A stretch of 63,354 bases of DNA from Rubrobacter sp. (GCA_013695475.1 JACDAJ010000204.1:1-63354); one strand, 5' to 3'; positions 2,371 through 25,932 are shown, numbered from the stretch's first letter. Notes: a model not told the origin generated them from the sequence alone. Numbers and translations are program-made.

Positions 2371-2949
2371 ATGGACGTGTATATTTTCTATTTGCGGGAT
2401 CCGAAGCTGAAAGGAGAGGCCATACACGCCGAGGAGACGAAGGTTCTCGAAGGCGAGAATATAGTTTTGAGGCCGCCGCGCGAGTCCGACGTGGAGGCCG
2501 CATACGCATGGGACAAAGACCCCGAACTCGCCGCGTGGAACGGTCGCGCCCCCCTCTCCATCTCGCTCTCCGCCGCCCGCCGCGACTATCTCTCCCGCTG
2601 GGACGACCGGAGCGTCAAAACCTTCATCATCGAAGTGGACGAAGAACCCGTCGGAATGGCGACCCTTTACGACTTCCGGAAAGGCGGCTGCGAACTCGGC
2701 ATAAAAATAGGGCCGCACGACCTCCGCGGCCACGGCATCGCCTCCGAAGCCGTCGAACTCCTCCTCGAATACACCTTCGAGGAGCTTCGCGTCGGACTCG
2801 TCCGCGGCTCGACCCTTTCCCACAACCATCGCATGCAGCGAGTCTTCGAGAAGCACGGCTTCCGGGAGGTCGGCGACGGCTCCATCCTCAGCCGCTATGA
2901 TAATCGTCGGTACTCGGAACTTTTTTACGAGAAGCGGCGAGGGGATTAG
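2371..2949 (+). CDS. GNAT family N-acetyltransferase
   Basis: ORF 2323..2949. Likely start is MDVY at 2371. ...LRPPRESDVEAAYAWDKDPE...IGPHDLRGHGIASEAVELLLEYTFEELRV is RimJ/RimL-like. Confidence 0.75.
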   Translation: MDVYIFYLRDPKLKGEAIHAEETKVLEGENIVLRPPRESDVEAAYAWDKDPELAAWNGRAPLSISLSAARRDYLSRWDDRSVKTFIIEVDEEPVGMATLYDFRKGGCELGIKIGPHDLRGHGIASEAVELLLEYTFEELRVGLVRGSTLSHNHRMQRVFEKHGFREVGDGSILSRYDNRRYSELFYEKRRGD

Positions 2950-3347
2950 CCGCTCCGAGGTTGTTCCGCCTCCCCGCGAGACAGTCGGAGGAGAGCGGCC
3001 ACGAAAATCCCCATAGCGAACGCTATGACGAACGTCGTTTCGCCCATGCGCCTTTCGAGGAGGCGGTCGGTCAGTTCCGGGTTCGAGAGCGCCGTGGCGG
3101 CGGCGACGCAAAAAAAGATCCCACACGCAAAACACGACGAACCCGCGACGAAACCCCCCGAACTCCGCGAGCGTGTGAGAAGGTATGCAAAGCCGCTCCC
3201 CATCACGCCTCCGGCCGCCGGATAAAGCATCTTCGTTATGGGCTCCGAACCGGAAAGCACGAACGCCGATATCGCCACGACGAGCAAAACGGCTCCGACC
3301 GCGTTGATCGCAAATATGATCTTCGTTCCCGCGCCCATATTTCCCAC
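2946..3347 (-). CDS. Hypothetical small membrane protein (3-4 predicted TM helices)
   Basis: ORF 2946..3404. I prefer the GTG at 3347, preceded by GAGGAGG. The first ~20 codons of the long ORF are encoded by a copy of a dispersed intergenic repeat (3372-3392). Confidence 0.5.
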   Translation of the reverse strand: MGNMGAGTKIIFAINAVGAVLLVVAISAFVLSGSEPITKMLYPAAGGVMGSGFAYLLTRSRSSGGFVAGSSCFACGIFFCVAAATALSNPELTDRLLERRMGETTFVIAFAMGIFVAALLRLSRGEAEQPRSG

Positions 3348-3410
3348 GAATGCCTCCTCGCTTCCATAATAATACGGAACCCGGATAATCACTTTCGCAT
3401 ACATTCGGCG

Positions 3411-3458
3411 GCGCGAATCGTGAATCGAAAAACACGGTTCGCGGCTCCCGGTTCGCTT
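3411..3458. repeat. Dispersed repeat family R1 copy (GCGCGAATCG..AATCGAAAAA..CGGTTCGCGGCTCC)
   Basis: gcgcgaatcgtgaatcgaaaaacacggttcgcggctcccggttcgc. Related copies at 8214-8251, 22274-22299 and 47823-47861. The core is amplified as a tandem array at 13166-13231. Confidence 0.6.
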
Positions 3459-3480
3459 CGAGGAGTGGGGAGTCGGCTAT

Positions 3481-3710
3481 GATCCCCTCCCGCTCCCCGC
3501 GATGCCGCCACATCCCCGCCCGGCGAAAACTCGCCCGGCTTCGCCTCCGGCTTTTCCCCACTCTCGCTCGGAGCCGCTTCGATCCGGGGAGTGAGAGCGA
3601 TCCCCGCCCCCCGCAGCGCCTCCGCATCTCCGCCCGGCGAAAACTCGCCCGGCTCGAGCCGGGGCTTCGGGACGGCCGTTTCGCCCCGGGCTTTTCCCCA
3701 CTCCCGAAAC
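3481..3710. repeat. About 115-bp tandem duplication (2 diverged copies)
   Basis: Both units contain tccccgcccggcgaaaactcgcccggct ... cttttccccactc (3512-3570 and 3628-3693). Confidence 0.55.
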
Positions 3711-3836
3711 GGCTTCGTCGCCGGAGGCGCGGAGAGCGTATTTCGTTTTTCCGACTCTTTCACCGCCTCCACTTCCTCCGGGAGCGAAGCGACCCCCCGA
3801 TTCTCGCGAACCCGCCGACCGAGTTCGGAGCCGTTC

Positions 3837-4790
3837 ATGAACGATGCCACGCGCTTTTATCCGCGTACAATTGAGAGCGTGGACACGGAACTGAAACTCG
3901 ACATCCGCGACAAGGGCGCGATGAGCGGCGTCCTCACCCTCGGGAGCCTCGACCCCGCCTTCGAGGCGATGGCGAAACTCGAAGACGGCTCCCCCGCCTC
4001 ACTCGACCTCCGACACGTGGATTTCGTGGAACCCGCCGGACTGTGCGGTCTCGCCGCCCTCCTCGAACGCCTCACCGCCCGCTCCGAGAATGTGAGCCTC
4101 TCCCTTCGCGGCCGGAACGTCGCCGCGTACCTCGAACGGATGGACTTCTTCCGAATGTTCGAGGGAAAGCTCGAAACGAACGTGGATGTCTCTTCCCTCG
4201 AAGACCGCGAGCGCCACGACCCCGGCACTCTCCAAGAACTCATAAATTTCCACAACGAGGACGAAATACCCGCCATCATCCACCGCATATCGAAGATCCT
4301 CGAAAATCAGGAATATTTGCTGAAAGAACGGGTCGCCGTATGCTCGACCCTCTCCGAAATCTGCGCGAACGCCGCCGAGCACGGCACCTCGTCCTTCGGG
4401 GCGTATGCCGCCGTCCAGGCGTACCACCACATCGTGAGCGGCCCCCGGAGGCGGGGCGAGGAAGTCCTCGTCGCCATCGCCGACGGCGGAGTGGGCGTCC
4501 GGGAGACGCTTTCGAGGAACCCGAAATACGCCGAGAATACCGGGACGGACAATGATGCGATTCGGCACGCGCTCGAGATGGGGGTTTCGACGACGGGGGA
4601 GGTCGGGAGGGGCGGCGGACTCACGCTCGTCGCGCAGATCGCCGCCCGGAACGGAGGCTCGCTCTCCATCCGATCCGGCTCCGGACGCATCACCGTTTAC
4701 GAGAAACGTAAAAACTCCCGCCACGTCCCTCCCTTCCCCGGAACCTTCGTCCGCGTCTCACTCCCCCGACACGCCAAAGAGGATGCATGA
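3837..4790 (+). CDS. STAS-like domain fused to a GHKL/HATPase_c domain (RsbW/SpoIIAB-like ATP-binding protein)
   Basis: ATG at 3837 after GGAG. The N-terminal half (...SLDLRHVDFVEPAGLCGLAALLERL...VAAYLERMDFF) looks STAS-like. The C-terminal half carries an N-box (EICANAAEHG), G1 (IADGGVGV) and G2 (GRGGGLTLV). Confidence 0.7.
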   Translation: MNDATRFYPRTIESVDTELKLDIRDKGAMSGVLTLGSLDPAFEAMAKLEDGSPASLDLRHVDFVEPAGLCGLAALLERLTARSENVSLSLRGRNVAAYLERMDFFRMFEGKLETNVDVSSLEDRERHDPGTLQELINFHNEDEIPAIIHRISKILENQEYLLKERVAVCSTLSEICANAAEHGTSSFGAYAAVQAYHHIVSGPRRRGEEVLVAIADGGVGVRETLSRNPKYAENTGTDNDAIRHALEMGVSTTGEVGRGGGLTLVAQIAARNGGSLSIRSGSGRITVYEKRKNSRHVPPFPGTFVRVSLPRHAKEDA

Positions 4791-5112
4791 TGCGGCCCCC
4801 GGTCAATGCCCCCCTCGCCGCCCGGAATTTATGAGTGTCTCTCGCACAATGCGGGACCCTCTCGGGCCGCTCCGCACAACGCCCCACAGCGAATTGCGGA
4901 AGTGTCGAGGCTTCGGGAACCGGACGCCAGGAAACACTTTCTCGGACGGAGCTTCGCGGGCGGGGTGGCCCGGCTTTCATGAACTCCACCGCCTCGCGAA
5001 GGGCGAATCGGCGGAGAACCCGCCACGGCGACGGTGGGAGAGAGATGGAATCGCCCCGCCCCGACATCGGAACACCCCCCGAGACAAATCCGGAAATCGT
5101 CGGAATATCCTC

Positions 5113-5141
5113 TTGACTCCCCACGACACCCCCGGTACAAT
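5113..5141 (+). promoter_or_regulatory. Sigma-70-type promoter: TTGACT - 17 bp - TACAAT
   Basis: -35 TTGACT at 5113-5118 and -10 TACAAT at 5136-5141. The ATG at 5150 sits about 8 nt after the -10, so the transcript may be leaderless. Confidence 0.55.
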
Positions 5142-5149
5142 CCTTTCAT

Positions 5150-5749
5150 ATGATTTCACTGAACACAATGAGAAAAAATCCGGCGTTGTCTGAGGAGCGT
5201 GCGAGCCGCGTCTTCGAGGTCTCCGGCGGGGATTTCGGGAATCGGCTCATGGTGACGCGGGGGATGGGGCGCGACGTGCGCCAGGCTCTCGTGGACGCCC
5301 TCACGGAGTTGCCGAAGGGCGGCGTCCTTTATGTGGACACCCGCTCGCTCGAGTTCGTGGATTATTCGTTCGCGGACGAGGCACTCGGCATTCTCGTTTC
5401 GAGGGTCGCGGGCGGCGAGTACGGGGAGAGGCATCTCGTCCTCGTCGAGTCTGACCGAGATCTCCTCGAGAACGTCGAGGCTTCCCTCCGCCAAAGAAAC
5501 CTCGCCATGCTCCGAGTCCCCGAGGTCGGCGGCGAACCCGCCGTCGTCGGAGTCCTCGAAGGCCATCTCCTCGAAACCCTCGAAGCCGTCCGGAAGGTCG
5601 GCCCCATAACCACCGCCGACCTCGCCGCCCGGCTCGAAGTCAACCACACCGCGTGCAACAACCGCGCCACAAACCTCGTCGAACGCGGCCTCATAGCTCG
5701 CCGCAAAGAATCCGGCGGAAGGCGTTATCTCTACGAGAGGATCGTGTGA
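5150..5749 (+). CDS. STAS-like (DUF4325-type) domain fused to a C-terminal winged-helix DNA-binding domain
   Basis: ...RGMGRDVRQALVDALTELPKGGVLYVDTRSLEFVDYSFADEALGILV is DUF4325-like. The C-terminus ...ITTADLAARLEVNHTACNNRATNLVERGLIARRKESGGRRYLY is MarR/ArsR-like wHTH. An alternative start is the ATG at 5168. Confidence 0.7.
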   Translation: MISLNTMRKNPALSEERASRVFEVSGGDFGNRLMVTRGMGRDVRQALVDALTELPKGGVLYVDTRSLEFVDYSFADEALGILVSRVAGGEYGERHLVLVESDRDLLENVEASLRQRNLAMLRVPEVGGEPAVVGVLEGHLLETLEAVRKVGPITTADLAARLEVNHTACNNRATNLVERGLIARRKESGGRRYLYERIV

Positions 5750-5767
5750 TGCTTTTATTTAATCTCA

Positions 5768-5789
5768 ATTTCACTCATGTCAGTGAAAT
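5768..5789. promoter_or_regulatory. Perfect palindrome ATTTCACT-catgtc-AGTGAAAT (candidate operator)
   Basis: Read directly, about 55 bp upstream of the operon starting at 5844. A near-identical site is at 25107-25124 and a degenerate one at 5153-5174. Confidence 0.5.
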
Positions 5790-5843
5790 AAACGATTTCG
5801 GTGAAAACGAAGCGAAGAGCGAAACAGCGAAGGGAGCGAAGTG

Positions 5844-6488
5844 ATGCGTGAGGAGTACATGATCGAGCGTCAGGGAAAGCGGTTCGTCCTTTATGCGGGG
5901 CTTCTCGAAGAGGCTCACAATCGGGGACTCCGGAGCATCGAGACGGAGCTTCTTCAGGTTCCGGGCATGGAGAATAGCGAGGTCGCCATTGTGAAGGCGG
6001 TCGTGCGGACGGAGGAGGGGAAGTTCTCCGGCATCGGGGATGCGAGTCCCGAGAACGTGAGTCGGACCATCGCGCCGCATCTCATCCGGATGGCCGAGAC
6101 TCGGGCGAAGGCGCGGGCATTGCGGGACGCCATCAATGTCTCGGTGACGGCTTTCGAGGAGCTTGGCGGCTCGGAGGGAAACGACGGCGCATCGGCGGTG
6201 GCCGAAGCTCCCGCTAAATCCGCCAAATCCGCCAAAAAGACGGCGGCGGAGCGTCCGGCGGCTGGTTCGGGGAAGGTCGAGAGCGGTTCGGGCGAGGCGG
6301 CTTCCGAAGTCGCCAAAGGCGAGCTTCCGGCGACGAGGAAGCAGCTCAATTATCTCGAGTCGTTGATCGGGGACGTCGTGGACGACGGGGTGCCGAAGTT
6401 CGAGGAGATGGTCGGGAAGAAGGTCGCCGAGTTGACGCGGGAGGAGGCGTCGGAGTGGATCGGGCGCCTCTCCGGGAAGGCGGCGTAG
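5844..6488 (+). CDS. Hypothetical protein; N-terminal core weakly reminiscent of Rad52/Sak-type annealing proteins, acidic/Ala-rich linker, DUF3072-like C-terminal motif
   Basis: RBS GGGAG 7 nt upstream. ...[20 protein letters not shown]...; C-terminus [12 protein letters not shown]...[13 protein letters not shown]. The family call is from memory and weak. Confidence 0.55.
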
Positions 6489-6493
6489 TGAGG

Positions 6494-6691
6494 ATGTGGG
6501 CGCCCGCCCTCGGTGGGGAGGTTCGTTATCACGAGGATCTCCCCTCGTGCTGCCGGAGCGAGGCTCGCGGCTCGGACGACGCATTCGGGTGCGTCTCGTG
6601 CGGGGCGGAGTGGCGGGCGGTGGAAGCGGAGCCGTCCGAGGAATGCGCCTTCGGCGTTGTCTCGGAGCGGGATCATCGGGGAGCCGCCTAA
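6494..6691 (+). CDS. Small Cys-rich (CC...CxxC) zinc-ribbon-like protein, paralog 1
   Basis: MWAPALGGEVRYHEDLPSCCRSEARGSDDAFGCVSCGAEWRAVE... Starts at or overlapping the stop of the upstream gene (GTG 6488 or ATG 6494). Confidence 0.5.
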   Translation: MWAPALGGEVRYHEDLPSCCRSEARGSDDAFGCVSCGAEWRAVEAEPSEECAFGVVSERDHRGAA

Positions 6692-6715
6692 AAATGGGCG
6701 TGGGGAGGATGCGGA

Positions 6716-6931
6716 ATGACGATGGACATACGGCTCATAAAAGAGATGCGCGGGGAGATGCTCCGGGAGGTCGAGGCGAATCGGCTCGCGAAGAAGATGC
6801 GGGCGCGGGGGAGGCTCCGGCGCGAATCGCGGTTCGCGGTCTTCGCGAGGGAAGCGAGGCTCGACTTCATCCGGCTCGCCGATGCGCTCCGGGTCACGGG
6901 AAAAGTCGCGAAGCGGAAGGAGAGGCCGTGA
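6716..6931 (+). CDS. Small basic helical protein (71 aa), unknown function
   Basis: RBS GGGGAGGA 7 nt upstream. [32 protein letters not shown]... Confidence 0.55.
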
Positions 6932-7209
6932 AGAAGACAAGAAAGAAGCCCGCCCTCCGCTCCGACACGACGGTGATGGACGTGGGGAGGAACGGTCGGG
7001 AGATGTACATTCGGGCGATGCCTTCGTGTTGCCTCGGCGCTTTGAAAGAGGCCGTCGCGCGAGGGTCGGACGGGCGGAGGCTCCTTTCGATGGAATGCCC
7101 GGAGTGCGGGCGGGAGTGGCGCATCACATCGAGCCTCGACGAGCGGGTGCTCGAACGGTTTGCGACGCACGGCGGCCCGAGGGTCGGCGGGGGGTATCCG
7201 GCGGCATGA
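6928..7209 (+). CDS. Small Cys-rich (CC...CxxC) zinc-ribbon-like protein, paralog 2
   Basis: The GTG at 6928 overlaps the upstream TGA (GTGA), with RBS AAGGAGAGG. ...[39 protein letters not shown]... Its stop overlaps the sigma start (ATGA). Confidence 0.55.
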
Positions 7210-8069
7210 ACGAGAAAGAAAAGGGAGGAGCCATGCAAGATACGTTGACGCAATATCTCGGGCAAATAAGGGGCGGGAGGCTCCTCGACGCGAGCGAGGA
7301 AGTGAGCCTCGGACGGCGTGTCCGGGAGGGCGACATGGCGGCGAGGCGGCGGCTCATCGAGTCGAATTTGCGGCTCGTCATCTCGATCGCGAAGAAGTAT
7401 CGGGGTCGGGGGGTTTCGTTCGAGGATCTCATACAAGAAGGAAACGCCGGGCTTATAAAGGCGGTCGGGAAGTTCGATCCGGAGATGGGGAACCGCTTCT
7501 CGACGTACGCGACGTGGTGGATCCGGCAGGCCGTCACCCGCGCCGTCGCCGACCATTCGAGGGCCGTCAGGCTCCCGGCGCACGTCATGGACGCCATCTT
7601 CCGCCTCCGAAAAGCCGAGAACGCCATGAGCGTGGAGTTCGGGCGCGAGCCGACGGACGACGAACTCGCCGAAGCCCTCGAAACAAAGCCGGAGGAAGTC
7701 CGTCGGCTCCGGCGCGTCAGCCAGCCGATATCGAGCATGAACGTCCGCCTCGGAACCGAGGAGGGTGCGGCGGAACTCGGGGAAATTTTTCCGGACGACG
7801 ACTCGCGCCGCGACTATGCCCGTGTCGAGGCGGGGGCGTGGGAAGGGCGGCTCCACGAGGCCGTCCGCTCATTGCCGGACCGCGAGGCGTGCATTTTGAG
7901 CATGAGGCACGGCCTCGACGGGAGCGGGGTTCGGACGTTGCGGGAGGTTTCCGAGGAGCTTGGGATTTCGCAGGAAAGGGCGCGGCAGGTCGAGATAAAG
8001 GCGCTCAAAACCATACGGTCGGGACGGTACGCGAGCTCGCTCCGCGCCGGGCTTCCCGAAGCCGTGTGA
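7206..8069 (+). CDS. RNA polymerase sigma factor, sigma-70 family (group 2/3-like, regions 2-4)
   Basis: MNEKEKGG...[65 protein letters not shown]...[22 protein letters not shown]. Confidence 0.9.
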
Positions 8070-9340: not shown

Positions 9341-10840
9341 CAATACGGTTTAGTTAAGGGGTGCGCTGACTCTCCTGGTAAGGTGAAGGAAGCACCACCA
9401 ACCTTCTCTCTGCCAAGGAGCCAGCGCATGTCATTAAGAATACGCCACATCGCCCCCGATGCCACCCCGGGCTCGAAACTCTCGCTCGAAGACCTCGCCC
9501 GGGTGCTCCGACCGGAGATCCTCTCAGACGTCCTCCACGAGTGCAAAGCTCACGAGCAGCGCACTCGCAAGTTGCCTGCCGCCACCGTCGTGCTAGTGTG
9601 CGTGGCCATGAATCTGTACACCACCGATTGTCTCGCCCACGTCTTTTTCCGCTTGGTTAGCGGGCTGCGATGGCTGCTGTCCGACCCCGGCGCCTCGCGG
9701 GTGAGCAAGGGGGCATTGTGCCAGGCCCGCTACCGTCTGGGAGCCCGGCCTCCGGTGGCGCTCTTTAAGCGGGTCTGCGCCAAGCCGCTGGCCGTGCCGA
9801 ACACCCCGGGGGCGTTCCTTTTTGGGCTGCGCCCGATGGCCCTTGACGGCACGACATTGGACGTGCCCGACACACCGCACAACGTTCGCGCCTTCGGTAA
9901 GCCCGGCGCCTCGCGGGGAACGAGTGCCTGGCCGCAGGTGCGGGTGGTTGCCCTGAGCGAATGCGCTACCCACGCCATCTTGGATGCGGGAGTCTGGCGC
10001 CACGACGTCGACGAACGCGATGCCGGGCGTCGGCTGATGCGCAGCGTGGGACCGGGGACGTTGCTGCTTTGGGACCGGGGTTTTCACAGCTTTACGATGG
10101 TCAAAGCGGCCCTCGCCAGGGGACCTGGCACCCACCTGCTGGGACGCCTGCCCGCCACGGTCAAACCGAAGGTGCTCCGCACACTCGCGGACGGTACGCA
10201 GCTGGTTCGCTTGCGACCGGCCGGCTACTATAGAGGGCACAGGCGAGCAGAACAGCTTACGGTGCGCTTGCTCCGCTACACCCTGGATGATCCCAACCGT
10301 CCCGGCCATCGGATCGAGCACCGCCTGATCACCTCGCTGCTCGATCCCGAGGACGCCCCCGCCGAGGAACTGGTGCTCGCCTACCACGCCCGCTGGGAGT
10401 TCGAACTGGCTGTCGATGAGATAAAGACTCACCAACGCCCGCCCCAACAACCGCTGCGCTCCCAGAAACCGGTGGGCGTCATACAAGAGATCTACGGGCT
10501 TCTGGTGGCCCACTACGTGATCCGAGCCGTCATGGTAGAGGCGGCGCGAACGGTGGCGCCGCCGCCGAGCCGCTTGAGCTTCACTGCTACGCTGCGCATC
10601 ATCCGCGAGATGGTGCCAGAGGCGCAACGCACCGCCGCTGCGGACCATCCGCGCCTCTACCGACAGCTGCTAGCGGACATAGTCGCAACACCCTTACCGC
10701 CACGAGCGAGCCGTAGTAATCCCCGCGTGGTCAAAAGGAAGATGTCCAACTTCGGGGTCAAGAACCCCTCCCATCGGTATTGGCCTCAGCCGACAAAATC
10801 CTTCCGCGAGGCGGTGGTTCTCCTTAACTAAACCGTATTG
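9341..10840 (+). mobile_element. IS4-family insertion sequence (1500 bp), apparently intact
   Basis: Perfect 19-bp terminal inverted repeats: CAATACGGTTTAGTTAAGG at 9341-9359 and its reverse complement at 10822-10840. Single transposase ORF, flanked by a 10-bp direct repeat. Confidence 0.85.
9428..10831 (+). CDS. IS4-family DDE transposase
   Basis: ORF 9383..10831. The ATG at 9428 follows AAGGAG. N-terminal IS4-type domain (LEDLARVL...KLPAATVVLVCVAMNLY) and a DDE region ending ...YHARWEFELAVDEIKTH. Confidence 0.85.
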   Translation: MSLRIRHIAPDATPGSKLSLEDLARVLRPEILSDVLHECKAHEQRTRKLPAATVVLVCVAMNLYTTDCLAHVFFRLVSGLRWLLSDPGASRVSKGALCQARYRLGARPPVALFKRVCAKPLAVPNTPGAFLFGLRPMALDGTTLDVPDTPHNVRAFGKPGASRGTSAWPQVRVVALSECATHAILDAGVWRHDVDERDAGRRLMRSVGPGTLLLWDRGFHSFTMVKAALARGPGTHLLGRLPATVKPKVLRTLADGTQLVRLRPAGYYRGHRRAEQLTVRLLRYTLDDPNRPGHRIEHRLITSLLDPEDAPAEELVLAYHARWEFELAVDEIKTHQRPPQQPLRSQKPVGVIQEIYGLLVAHYVIRAVMVEAARTVAPPPSRLSFTATLRIIREMVPEAQRTAAADHPRLYRQLLADIVATPLPPRASRSNPRVVKRKMSNFGVKNPSHRYWPQPTKSFREAVVLLN

Positions 10841-10850
10841 GGTTTAGAGG
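10841..10850. repeat. Target-site duplication, right copy (GGTTTAGAGG)
   Basis: See 9331-9340. Confidence 0.75.
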
Positions 10851-11048
10851 GACTTCCCCCCGCGTGCGTTCCGTTCATGATCTTTTGCCCCCTCCTGACG
10901 TGAAGCGTTTTCTATGCTCCGGCAGACCGAGAGCCGGAACCTTGGACGCCATTTACATACGATTTATCGGCCATGTCAAGAGAAGGCTTTAATATTGCCC
11001 CGATTCGCGGGAAAATAACCGCCGCCGACGGAAGCCGAAGGGAGATTT

Positions 11049-25179: not shown

Positions 25180-25932
25180 ATGGAGGCTGGCATGGATTCG
25201 AAGGGGTTTCTCGAAAAGTTGAAGCGGGAGGTCATCGGGCATCCCACGTTGACGCATCCGTTTTTGGAGAGGTTCGCGGAGGGGGATGCCGGCGAAGAGG
25301 GCATCCGTACTTTCGCCATCCAATATTATCGGCACGTCCGGGTGAGTCGTTTGTATTTGGCGTCGCTCATATCGGGGTGTCGGGACGATGAATCGCTCCA
25401 GCTCGCGCTCGCGGAGATACTGCTCGACGAGTACGGTGGTTTGAATCCCGAGGAGACGCATCCCGCGTTGTATCGGCGGTTTATGGATGCGCTCGGGGTT
25501 TCGGAGGAGGAATGGCGGGAGCCTCGGACGTTGCCGGAGATCGAGGCGTATATCTCCGTGCATTACGAATTGTGCCGGAACCCGGACATCCGGCTCGGGC
25601 TGGGGGCGATGGGGCCGGCGAGCGAGTGGCCGGTGCCGCCGATATACGCGAAGCTCTCGGCGGGACTTCGGAAGGCCGCCGGGCTTTCGGACAAAGAACT
25701 CGAGATCTTCATAAGCCACGTGACTATGGACGTGGAGCACGCCCGCATCATGATGGACGCCACCGAGCCGTATGTCCGCGACGAGGCGGGGCAAAGGATC
25801 GTGCGCGAGGGCGCGATGCGTTCCCTCGACGTTCGCGGCATCATGCTCGACGGGCTTTATCAGGCGGTGTACCGGGAGCCGTCGCCGTTTCGCCCGGACG
25901 TGTCGCTGCGGGTGGTGGGGGAGCCTTCGTAA
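25180..25932 (+). CDS. Iron-containing redox enzyme family protein (heme-oxygenase-like / TenA-PqqC-like fold)
   Basis: The ATG at 25180 is 5 nt after GGAGG. ...HPFLERFAEGD...IQYYRHVRVSRLYLA...ILLDEYGG...HPALYRRFMDALG...ISHVTMDVEHA... Confidence 0.7.
   Translation: MEAGMDSKGFLEKLKREVIGHPTLTHPFLERFAEGDAGEEGIRTFAIQYYRHVRVSRLYLASLISGCRDDESLQLALAEILLDEYGGLNPEETHPALYRRFMDALGVSEEEWREPRTLPEIEAYISVHYELCRNPDIRLGLGAMGPASEWPVPPIYAKLSAGLRKAAGLSDKELEIFISHVTMDVEHARIMMDATEPYVRDEAGQRIVREGAMRSLDVRGIMLDGLYQAVYREPSPFRPDVSLRVVGEPS

Follow-up and report, generated by a model that had tools for sequence, protein, structure and literature searches.

The CapK/CapS pair ('controller of associated pathways'; Chambers et al., EMBO J 2026, PMC13373217) couples a kinase to a transcriptional repressor. 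CapK combines a helix-turn-helix (HTH), a STAS domain and a GHKL kinase domain, is switched on by single-stranded DNA (ssDNA), and phosphorylates Ser54 of CapS, a repressor in which a STAS domain is joined to a winged helix-turn-helix (wHTH). Phosphorylation splits the CapS dimer and frees two palindromes, one at the capS promoter in the capK-capS spacer and one before the associated operon. These sites were mapped by chromatin immunoprecipitation sequencing (ChIP-seq) and binding assays; in E. roggenkampii one is a narrow and the other a wide palindrome. Structures of CapS are available as 9Z71, 9Z72 and 9Z73. Activation by ssDNA depends on a conserved aromatic residue (the ssDNA-contacting W68 in CapK, F54 in VapK), and deleting the N-terminal HTH of CapK has no effect. 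None of the cargo classes listed in that paper is a sigma-factor or recombination operon, and its main text makes no mention of Rubrobacter, Actinobacteria or Rad52 (PMC13373217). Here we describe a cluster of seven open reading frames (ORFs), A to G, at positions 3837-8069 of a 63,354-nt stretch of Rubrobacter sp. DNA (the window), in which a protein pair of the CapK/CapS type probably controls, through two palindromic operators, an operon that ends in a sigma-factor gene.

All seven ORFs lie on the + strand between 3.8 and 8.1 kb, in DNA of about 63% G+C, and the nearest relatives of every cluster protein are from Rubrobacter or other Rubrobacteraceae. The order of kinase gene, repressor gene and cargo is that of all 443 capKS loci in PMC13373217; both proteins are homologous to their CapK/CapS counterparts, the phospho-acceptor serine is conserved, and two palindromes that share half-sites lie at the repressor promoter and before the cargo. 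There are also differences. The Rubrobacter kinase has no N-terminal HTH. The half-sites read TCACT in place of TTAA and are equally spaced at both palindromes, where CapS has one narrow and one wide site, and the host is a deep-branching actinobacterium with the pair as a fixed part of its core genome. The cargo consists of a sigma factor, a protein resembling single-strand annealing proteins (SSAPs) and two Cys4 mini-proteins, and not of CBASS, Bub, Thoeris or YegP.

Two further described systems are close. VapK of the VapK-VapS-VapC system (PMC13373217; VapS-VapC structure 9Z7O) consists of STAS and GHKL domains only, which is also the layout of A, and the only Nitrospirota locus examined closely (L045) has a PIN-domain gene between its relatives of A and B. 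However, in VapS a short C-terminal tail blocks the toxin and a wHTH is lacking, whereas B carries a full wHTH; the Rubrobacter cluster has no PIN toxin, and the B profile matches VapS weakly (E 0.25). The SpoIIAB/SpoIIAA/sigma-F and RsbW/RsbV/sigma-B systems share with this locus the pairing of a GHKL serine kinase with a STAS serine and a sigma factor as the final output. The earlier note on this DNA had not recognized the architecture as a described system, but that of A and B has been known since 2026 as the kinase-repressor pair of PMC13373217. What is new is that an actinobacterial family has the pair fixed in its core genome, together with the sequence of the operators and a cargo of sigma factor, SSAP-like protein and Cys4 proteins with Ala-Ala ends.

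The A and B proteins

Gene A had been read as an antagonist-like STAS domain joined to an RsbW/SpoIIAB-like GHKL module, and domain searches point the same way. In Pfam, A matches HATPase_c (1.8e-5), STAS_2 (3.3e-4) and STAS (2.3e-3), all just under the gathering scores; a homologue from a Gordonia phage reaches 4.9e-5 for STAS, above the cut-off, and phrog_3364 matches A over its full length (5e-34). Profile searches of the PDB return CheA, histidine-kinase and STAS chains, the last including the SpoIIAA-like 4hyl (0.0027), MlaB (0.005) and TM1442 (0.019). The A family aligns with E. roggenkampii CapK (hhalign 98.6%, E 8e-16), placing A 85-278 on CapK 123-326 and the N-box Asn of A on the CapK motif SELIGNVRDH; the CapK and CapS sequences used for comparison are the source data of PMC13373217. 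Residues E174, N178, H182, D216, G218, G220, R258, G259, G261 and L262 are invariant, the N-box (SEICANAAEH), G1 (DGGVG) and G2 (RGGGL) motifs are kept, and the predicted ATP-binding site is intact. By profile homology, A is a CapK homologue.

Gene B had been described as a DUF4325-like STAS domain fused to a winged helix. The wHTH is matched directly by MarR_2 (residues 143-192, 6.9e-8, Pfam), and the DUF4325 assignment is reached through relatives, with 4.5e-5 for a Nitrospirota homologue, which passes the cut-off, and 0.0088 for the R. radiotolerans orthologue. A literature search on DUF4325 returned nothing on its function. In a search of the PDB, the profile built from B orthologues found the CapS crystal structures and matched them across both domains (B residues 34-199), with E 2.7e-12 for 9Z72 and 9Z73 and 1.1e-10 for 9Z71, and hhalign of the B family against E. 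roggenkampii CapS gives 96.5% and E 1e-9. On these full-length matches B is a CapS homologue, and the earlier observation that an antagonist-like domain is fused once to a kinase module (A) and once to a wHTH (B) is borne out by the domain matches of both proteins.

Ser73 of B aligns with CapS Ser54 (DYSF versus DSSF), which is the second serine of CapS TDSSF, the number 54 having been counted in the construct sequence. Ser73 is invariant in 13 diverse sequences, including those from Nitrospirota and phage LYGO9. Comparing the B family with B. subtilis SpoIIAA by hhalign gave no meaningful alignment, and the serine equivalence rests on CapS. In PMC13373217 the STAS-wHTH protein represses the adjacent operon by binding DNA and does not act on a sigma-factor protein.

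Distant relatives of the pair occur in other contexts. A-like STAS/GHKL ATPases are found in temperate phages between lysis or tail genes and the integrase, a moron position. In Streptococcus phage LYGO9 (L046, 3438-4627), an A-like gene is followed by an overlapping gene for a 99-aa DUF4325 (STAS-only) protein, and this kinase-STAS pair occupies a moron position with no obvious cargo. Gordonia phage Phishy (L047, 2920-3771) encodes a further A-like ATPase. Three metagenome-assembled genomes of Nitrospirota (L042, L044 and L045) contain homologues of A (29% identity) and B (30-32%) that lie 1-3.5 kb apart; a sigma gene and the TCACT palindrome are both absent from these loci, and the alignment of the Nitrospirota STAS protein extends over the wHTH region of B. 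A tblastn search of plasmids with A found distant, unannotated relatives only, and did not find enterobacterial CapK.

Operators, promoters and a fixed chromosomal position

It is the layout of two palindromes, O1 and O2, that ties A and B to the C-G operon beyond synteny. O2 was found by aligning B-C spacers and O1 by pattern search, and a position weight matrix (PWM) was built from both; their common palindrome is TCACT(G/C)-N4-CAGTGA. O1 reads GATTTCACTGA-NN-ACAGTGAGGA and begins 7 nt past the conserved B start codon ATG, just downstream of both the -10 element and the B transcription start. The same core, TCACTGA-NN-ACAGTGA, recurs in 31 of 31 species, with no change even at would-be wobble positions. 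O2, (C/T)TCACT(C)-N4-CAGTGAAGA, is located in the spacer between B and C, 52-70 nt upstream of C (about 60 nt in the window). Its exact core is present in 30 Rubrobacteraceae loci, and a further locus (L019) has a degenerate copy at the same position that scores 16.3 bits. The sequence flanking O2 varies between species, and a TA(G/T)(T/C)CT hexamer abuts its left half-site in many of them. The PWM found no other site of at least 16 bits in 480 kb of related loci. One site at the repressor promoter and one before the cargo is also the arrangement mapped for CapS (PMC13373217).

The promoter assigned to B matches consensus at 10 of 12 positions and ends 8 nt before the ATG, and TTGnnn-17-TAnAAT is kept in the short A-B spacer of other species. 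An alternative start for B is TTG 5186. Upstream of A, a consensus scan gave a promoter-like site whose TACAAT (3866-3871 here) is kept 7-9 nt upstream of the ATG or GTG of A in 21 of 21 loci examined, and there is no operator at this position. Because of this conserved TACAAT, and because orthologues mostly have 302-304 aa, the start of A was moved from 3837, which probably lies in the promoter region, to GTG 3879 as the most likely start. Transcripts of A are likely to be leaderless or near-leaderless, judging from this spacing.

The cluster occupies one position in the chromosome. A genome scan with a single-protein query, which used one genome per species and reaches close relatives only, returned 32 Rubrobacteraceae loci, and an identical cluster is present on six further contigs of the same species. 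Searching the loci by tblastn with all window proteins, we found the order A-B-C-D-F-G in essentially all loci that are long enough, so that six of the seven ORFs are kept in order across about 30 Rubrobacteraceae species. Identities across loci are 68-87% for A, 56-75% for B, 64-82% for C, 40-57% for D and 47-62% for F, and 66-75% for G in full-length matches. The flanks are constant as well, with an HD_assoc-domain protein and a GNAT upstream and ThyX downstream, joined in some species by an M23 peptidase. In the window, the M23 peptidase gene and thyX are separated by a 482-aa ORF at 9383-10831, taken as an IS4-type transposase. Since it is missing from the six other same-species contigs, this insertion is recent and strain-specific. 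With gene order and flanks fixed across Rubrobacteraceae and the insertion confined to one strain, the cluster is a vertically inherited core-genome block. The earlier suggestion of an accessory or ex-phage module, prompted by neighboring repeats and the insertion sequence, is thereby ruled out.

A third site, O3, was found in the window, where O1, O2 and O3 are the only sites of at least 9 bits. O3 scores the same as O1 and lies in an AT-rich divergent promoter region between the gene of an unknown 195-aa protein (24480-25067, - strand) and that of a CADD/Haem_oxygenas_2-family protein (25180-25932, + strand). From its sequence, O3 may mark a further member of the B regulon. A PIN/FitA-like toxin-antitoxin pair and an Fpg glycosylase are encoded just downstream. 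Table 1 lists the features of the cluster together with O3.

Table 1. Genes, promoters and operators of the A-G cluster, with the distal candidate site, in window coordinates
Feature	Position	Strand	Description
Gene A	3879..4790 (earlier reading 3837)	+	303 aa, CapK/VapK-like STAS + GHKL Ser kinase
Gene B	5150..5749	+	CapS-like; N-terminal STAS/DUF4325-like domain, C-terminal MarR-type wHTH
Gene C	5844..6488	+	214 aa, SSAP-like N-terminal domain + DUF3072-like C-terminal helical domain
Gene D	6488..6691	+	67-aa Cys4 mini-protein
Gene E	6716..6931	+	71-aa basic helical protein
Gene F	6928..7209	+	93-aa Cys4 mini-protein, paralogue of D
Gene G	7206..8069	+	287-aa primary-like (group-2-type) sigma-70 factor
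A promoter-like site	3844..3871	+	ATGCCA-16-TACAAT, from consensus scan
B promoter	5113..5141	+	TTGACT-17-TACAAT
Operator O1	5152..5175		Palindrome, core 5156-5171 = TCACTGAACACAATGA, PWM 24.8 bits
Operator O2	5767..5790		Palindrome, core 5771-5786 = TCACTCATGTCAGTGA, PWM 32.5 bits
Candidate operator O3	25104..25127		TAATTCACTGAAAATAGTGAAATA, PWM 24.8 bits

Genes of the C-G operon

The earlier description of a tightly coupled operon that ends in the sigma gene is confirmed, with all three of its start/stop overlaps found in the sequence. The C stop and the GTG start of D share TAGTG (6486-6490), and D is translationally coupled to C. The E stop and the GTG start of F share GTGA (6928-6931), and the F stop and the ATG start of G share ATGA (7206-7209). 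There is no overlap at the D-E junction, where a 24-nt gap contains GGAGG before E. The start codon of C is ATG 5844. In the spacer between B and C (window 5749-5843; L001 5034-5129), automatic gene callers report a 31-aa ORF that spans O2 and is probably spurious. The callers also missed gene D in all six same-species contigs shown, and in two of these they report a 108-aa ORF on the opposite strand instead.

In the C protein, a variable acidic linker joins an N-terminal domain of about 110 aa to a C-terminal domain that is helical and conserved, and many columns in residues 1-110 are invariant across the family. The family is large (5262 clusters at 90% identity, 3440 at 50%) and is represented in 41 IMG/VR viral contigs, with phage homologues at 48% identity that have the same three-part build. 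These relatives take the place of the SSAP gene in phage recombination modules. The C homologue of Paenibacillus phage API480 is flanked by a Gam-like host-nuclease inhibitor and by SSB; that of Rossellomorea phage phiT1 bears the annotation 'DNA repair and recombination protein', with regulators on one side and the replicative helicase on the other. In scans of Pfam, PHROG, NCBIfam and PADLOC, C itself matches only phrog_22961 and phrog_987, both of unknown function.

The earlier labels for C, Rad52/Sak-like and DUF3072-like, have indirect support only, from the phage context, weak fold matches and DUF3072 matches of relatives. Unlike the phage Rad52-superfamily SSAPs (ERF, Sak and Sak3), the N-terminal domain of C has no significant match to a Pfam SSAP family or PDB chain, and C additionally carries the DUF3072-like C-terminal domain. 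The AlphaFold model of C is of moderate confidence (predicted local distance difference test, pLDDT, 54-78 for the N-terminal domain and about 90 for the C-terminal domain, mean about 60). A Foldseek search of the PDB with this model gave nothing significant, the top match being 80-alpha Sak (E 0.012, probability 0.23), and a search of BFVD gave ERF (4.5e-4, probability 0.99), SAK3 (2.2e-3) and Rad52 (2.5e-2), all with low TM-scores. DUF3072 (PF11272) is reached by 8 of 38 diverse members of the C family (best E 8.9e-7), while C of the window has no match. A Rad52-superfamily SSAP-like domain followed by a DUF3072-like domain is our best, though not proven, reading of C. Deinococcus DdrA is likewise a Rad52-type protein in a radiation-resistant bacterium, as C would be. 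DdrA is, however, reported absent from R. radiotolerans (PMC4148983).

Around the viral C genes, D or F was found in 0 of 41 loci and a sigma gene in only 2 of 41; the C-D-F-G combination is therefore Rubrobacter-specific and not phage-borne. A second full-length C paralogue (49.5% identity) is encoded on a 264-kb Rubrobacter marinus plasmid (L050, NZ_CP045122.1, 6001-6672), with ruvC and a gene for an unknown 140-aa protein just upstream and a DUF6883/DUF4926 pair after it. This plasmid copy is accompanied by neither D, F, a sigma gene nor the palindrome.

The small ORFs D and F are real genes. Their frames are undisrupted in 26 and 24 aligned species respectively, with invariant cysteines, and divergence at the three codon positions (0.28/0.26/0.47 for D, 0.30/0.24/0.48 for F) has the same third-position excess as in the large genes. 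Their paralogy, noticed earlier from a shared motif, is upheld by hhalign (95.6%, E 1.3e-8). D has the motif DLPxCC ... FECxxCGAxW and a Gly-Ala-Ala end, and D17, L18, P19, C21, C22, F33, C35, C38, G39, W42, G65, A66 and A67 are invariant in the 26-species alignment. In F, the 24-species alignment has invariant LR-DT, E-Y, P-CC, C-x(1,2)-C, W and SSLD, including a conserved N-terminal LRPDTT motif, and a conserved tail that ends in PAA; the second cysteine pair is C-x-C in about half of the species. The AlphaFold model of F (mean pLDDT about 60) has a core at about 70-78, with Cys-Cys at a helix N-terminus and C-x-x-C in a beta-hairpin, and a tail below 50 that is predicted to be disordered; a search with it gave no fold match (best E 2.7). 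A tail that is conserved yet disordered is typical of a segment that folds on a partner.

Neither mini-protein has a match in Pfam, PHROG, NCBIfam or PADLOC, profile searches of the PDB returned generic zinc knuckles only, and the searches made for relatives outside Rubrobacteraceae found only Rubrobacter-type homologues. As small cysteine proteins coupled upstream of an actinobacterial sigma-70 gene, D and F resemble zinc anti-sigma (ZAS) proteins, WhiB-like proteins and RbpA in position only. The ZAS motif H-x3-C-x2-C is absent from both, there being no His four residues before C-x-x-C; neither has an anti-sigma Pfam match, and there is no Pfam match to families of these kinds at E <=0.1. 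The pattern CC...C-x(1,2)-C is also unlike the cysteine patterns of WhiB or RbpA. The role of a Cys4 zinc anti-sigma factor, which had been proposed for the protein overlapping the sigma start, is a guess.

An Ala-Ala end is present in C and D in all species and in F in 22 of 24, against a background of 2 in 150 long ORFs of the window. Across orthologues (L007-L040), synonymous variation affects both the Ala codons (GCC, GCG, GCT, GCA) and the stop codons, which points to selection at the protein level and rules out the Ala-Ala end as a by-product of overlapping start signals. A C-terminal Ala-Ala is a key determinant of ssrA-type ClpXP degrons, as in ssrA (LAA), RseA(1-108) (VAA) and the SOS protein RecN (LAA). 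By this analogy, and speculatively, the Ala-Ala ends may make C, D and F unstable and the response transient.

G is a sigma-70-family factor, as first described, with Pfam regions 1.2, 2, 3 and 4 (to 4.2) and without region 1.1. Its best PDB matches are Firmicutes SigA (238 bits); against NCBIfam RpoD and RpoS models it scores about 264 bits (about 1e-78), all below the cut-offs, and against TIGR02980 SigBFG it reaches 132.8 bits where the cut-off is 234. The sigma factor is thus primary-like and not of the SigB/F type that partner switching would involve.

E is a lineage-specific insertion between D and F. Outside the window species, homologues were found only in L010 (57% identity, cut by a contig end), with a weak match in L019; E has no family match in Pfam, PHROG, NCBIfam or PADLOC and no further copy within the window. 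R. radiotolerans has D and lacks F. In the complete Rubrobacter marinus chromosome (L029, ~10356-10920), the D and F regions match in fragments and the ORFs continue in other frames, which suggests frameshifts in both mini-protein genes, either as pseudogenes or as sequencing errors.

Several features lie upstream of the cluster. In the window, the gap between the GNAT gene and A (2946-3836) contains an extra 152-aa membrane-like ORF on the - strand and an imperfect direct duplication of ~114-140 bp (3489-3566 and 3603-3706); this gap is often much shorter in other species, with tens of bp in several. Just upstream of the HD_assoc-domain gene, the - strand carries a tRNA-Lys (CTT) gene at 706-779. 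A further contig of this species (L003, 63-1211) has a tyrosine-integrase gene beyond tRNA-Lys, and an integrated element may abut the far side of this tRNA gene.

Proposed regulation of the operon and alternative readings

We consider it likely, with room for doubt, that A and B are a CapK/CapS-type pair controlling the C-G operon via O1 and O2. In this mechanism, a dimer of B would bind both palindromes, with O1 serving autoregulation and O2 keeping C-D-(E)-F-G off. A would be expressed from its own unregulated promoter and, by analogy with CapK, switched on by ssDNA arising from damage or repair. Active A would phosphorylate Ser73 of B, and the B dimer would then split and leave the DNA, allowing transcription of B and of the operon. 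The phage-derived C would probably bind or anneal ssDNA; G would serve as an additional sigma factor of primary-like type, steering RNA polymerase towards a wider regulon; and D and F, as zinc-type mini-proteins, would probably be partners of G, RNA polymerase or C. Clearance of C, D and F as short-lived substrates of the ClpXP type would shut the response off again. We infer DNA binding by B, Ser73 phosphorylation, the ssDNA signal and de-repression of B and C-G by analogy with the enterobacterial pair, and the roles of C in ssDNA protection or annealing, of G in a secondary regulon and of D and F as partners are speculative.

Several observations weigh against this mechanism. First, both the signal and the phosphorylation step are borrowed from the enterobacterial CapK and CapS proteins, which are only about 25% identical. 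The N-terminal STAS part of A gives no alignment to CapK by hhalign; Phe63 is invariant and Phe42 nearly invariant in this domain, and the ssDNA-contacting Trp68 of CapK has no aligned counterpart in A. A also has no HTH family match (Pfam, NCBIfam), its STAS-like region starting near the N-terminus. Second, the half-site spacing is equal at O1 and O2, unlike that of the narrow and wide pair of E. roggenkampii CapS. A consensus scan of the window found no canonical promoter before C, and O2 could instead act on read-through from the B promoter. Third, the flanking housekeeping genes are syntenic too, so gene order alone is no proof of a link between A/B and C-G, and this link rests on O2. Finally, known CapKS cargos are mostly immune operons, and C-G is not.

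This last point leads to the alternative that C-G is a conflict system in its own right, anti-phage or other, or else the domesticated remnant of a prophage, under CapKS-like control in the manner of CBASS, Bub or Thoeris. Immune operons follow 348 of the 443 capKS loci (PMC13373217), the C family is common in phages, A-like kinases occupy prophage moron positions, and at least one defense system (MZA) contains a sigma-70-like protein. G matches the PADLOC model of that protein, MzaA, over the generic sigma part only and far under the cut-off, and C, D, E and F have no PADLOC match at all. Unlike a variable defense island, the cluster keeps one fixed chromosomal position between housekeeping genes in about 30 species, and unlike fast-evolving immune genes, C has a highly invariant N-terminal domain. 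The viral loci that carry C also lack D and F and, in all but the two cases noted above, a sigma gene. We regard an immune cargo as unlikely.

A second alternative is classical partner switching, with which the earlier note compared the cluster, and in which A would be an anti-sigma factor and kinase that holds G, the STAS domain of B or of A would release it, and F would be a zinc anti-sigma factor. The kinase domain of A is of the SpoIIAB/RsbW type and weakly matches anti-sigma F factor in the PDB (E ~0.05), both A and B contain STAS domains, and the sigma gene lies 2.4 kb downstream in every species, with its start overlapping the F stop in the window. Against this, B has a wHTH for DNA binding and is a significant full-length homologue of the repressor CapS, and the two conserved operators account for the link to the sigma factor at the level of transcription, which is where we infer control to lie. 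G is primary-like and neither SigB/F/G nor group 3, the cluster has no PP2C phosphatase gene, and D and F lack the ZAS motif. The A-B pair occurs without a sigma gene in Nitrospirota, and no sigma gene was found near the phage A-like kinases. These points make direct partner switching of G very improbable. It is just as improbable that A/B and C-G are mere syntenic neighbors, with the palindrome belonging to another regulator and B regulating something else: the unrelated HD_assoc, GNAT and ThyX genes are also in conserved order, O3, with a score equal to that of O1, is 19 kb distant and next to unrelated genes, and DNA binding by B is a prediction, but one site falls exactly on the B promoter, as is characteristic of a repressor that regulates itself, the two sites together repeat the CapS layout mapped by experiment, and the remainder of 480 kb of related DNA lacks the motif.

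Control of C-G by a CapK/CapS-type pair thus remains the reading we prefer, and it places the module in a new setting. CapK/CapS has been described as a regulator that senses DNA damage, mainly before anti-phage operons and largely on variable islands, and here the pair belongs to the core genome of an extremely radiation- and desiccation-resistant family. The genome of R. radiotolerans RSPS-4 has no LexA, no IrrE/PprA and no DdrA-D, and alternative damage-response mechanisms have been asked for (PMC4148983). Without LexA, IrrE and DdrA-D another damage regulator is needed there, and the A-G locus is a candidate for such a mechanism in Rubrobacter. In its boldest form, which we hold tentatively and think doubtful as a whole, the CapK/CapS-like pair and sigma factor G would be the master SOS-like DNA-damage switch of Rubrobacteraceae, at least one strain of which has neither LexA nor IrrE/DdrO; in this switch an ssDNA-A-B relay would release a Rad52-type protein and a sigma factor for a repair and desiccation regulon, D and F would be new zinc mini-proteins tuning the sigma factor or RNA polymerase, and Ala-Ala-dependent clearance would end the response. 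If the proposed regulation is correct, it would give a concrete account of how Rubrobacter switches on a damage response, and a STAS-kinase/STAS-repressor module would be seen to head a sigma-factor cascade and not only immune systems. The D and F proteins, and the C family with its more than 3000 clusters, would then be candidates for new accessory factors of RNA polymerase or of DNA repair.

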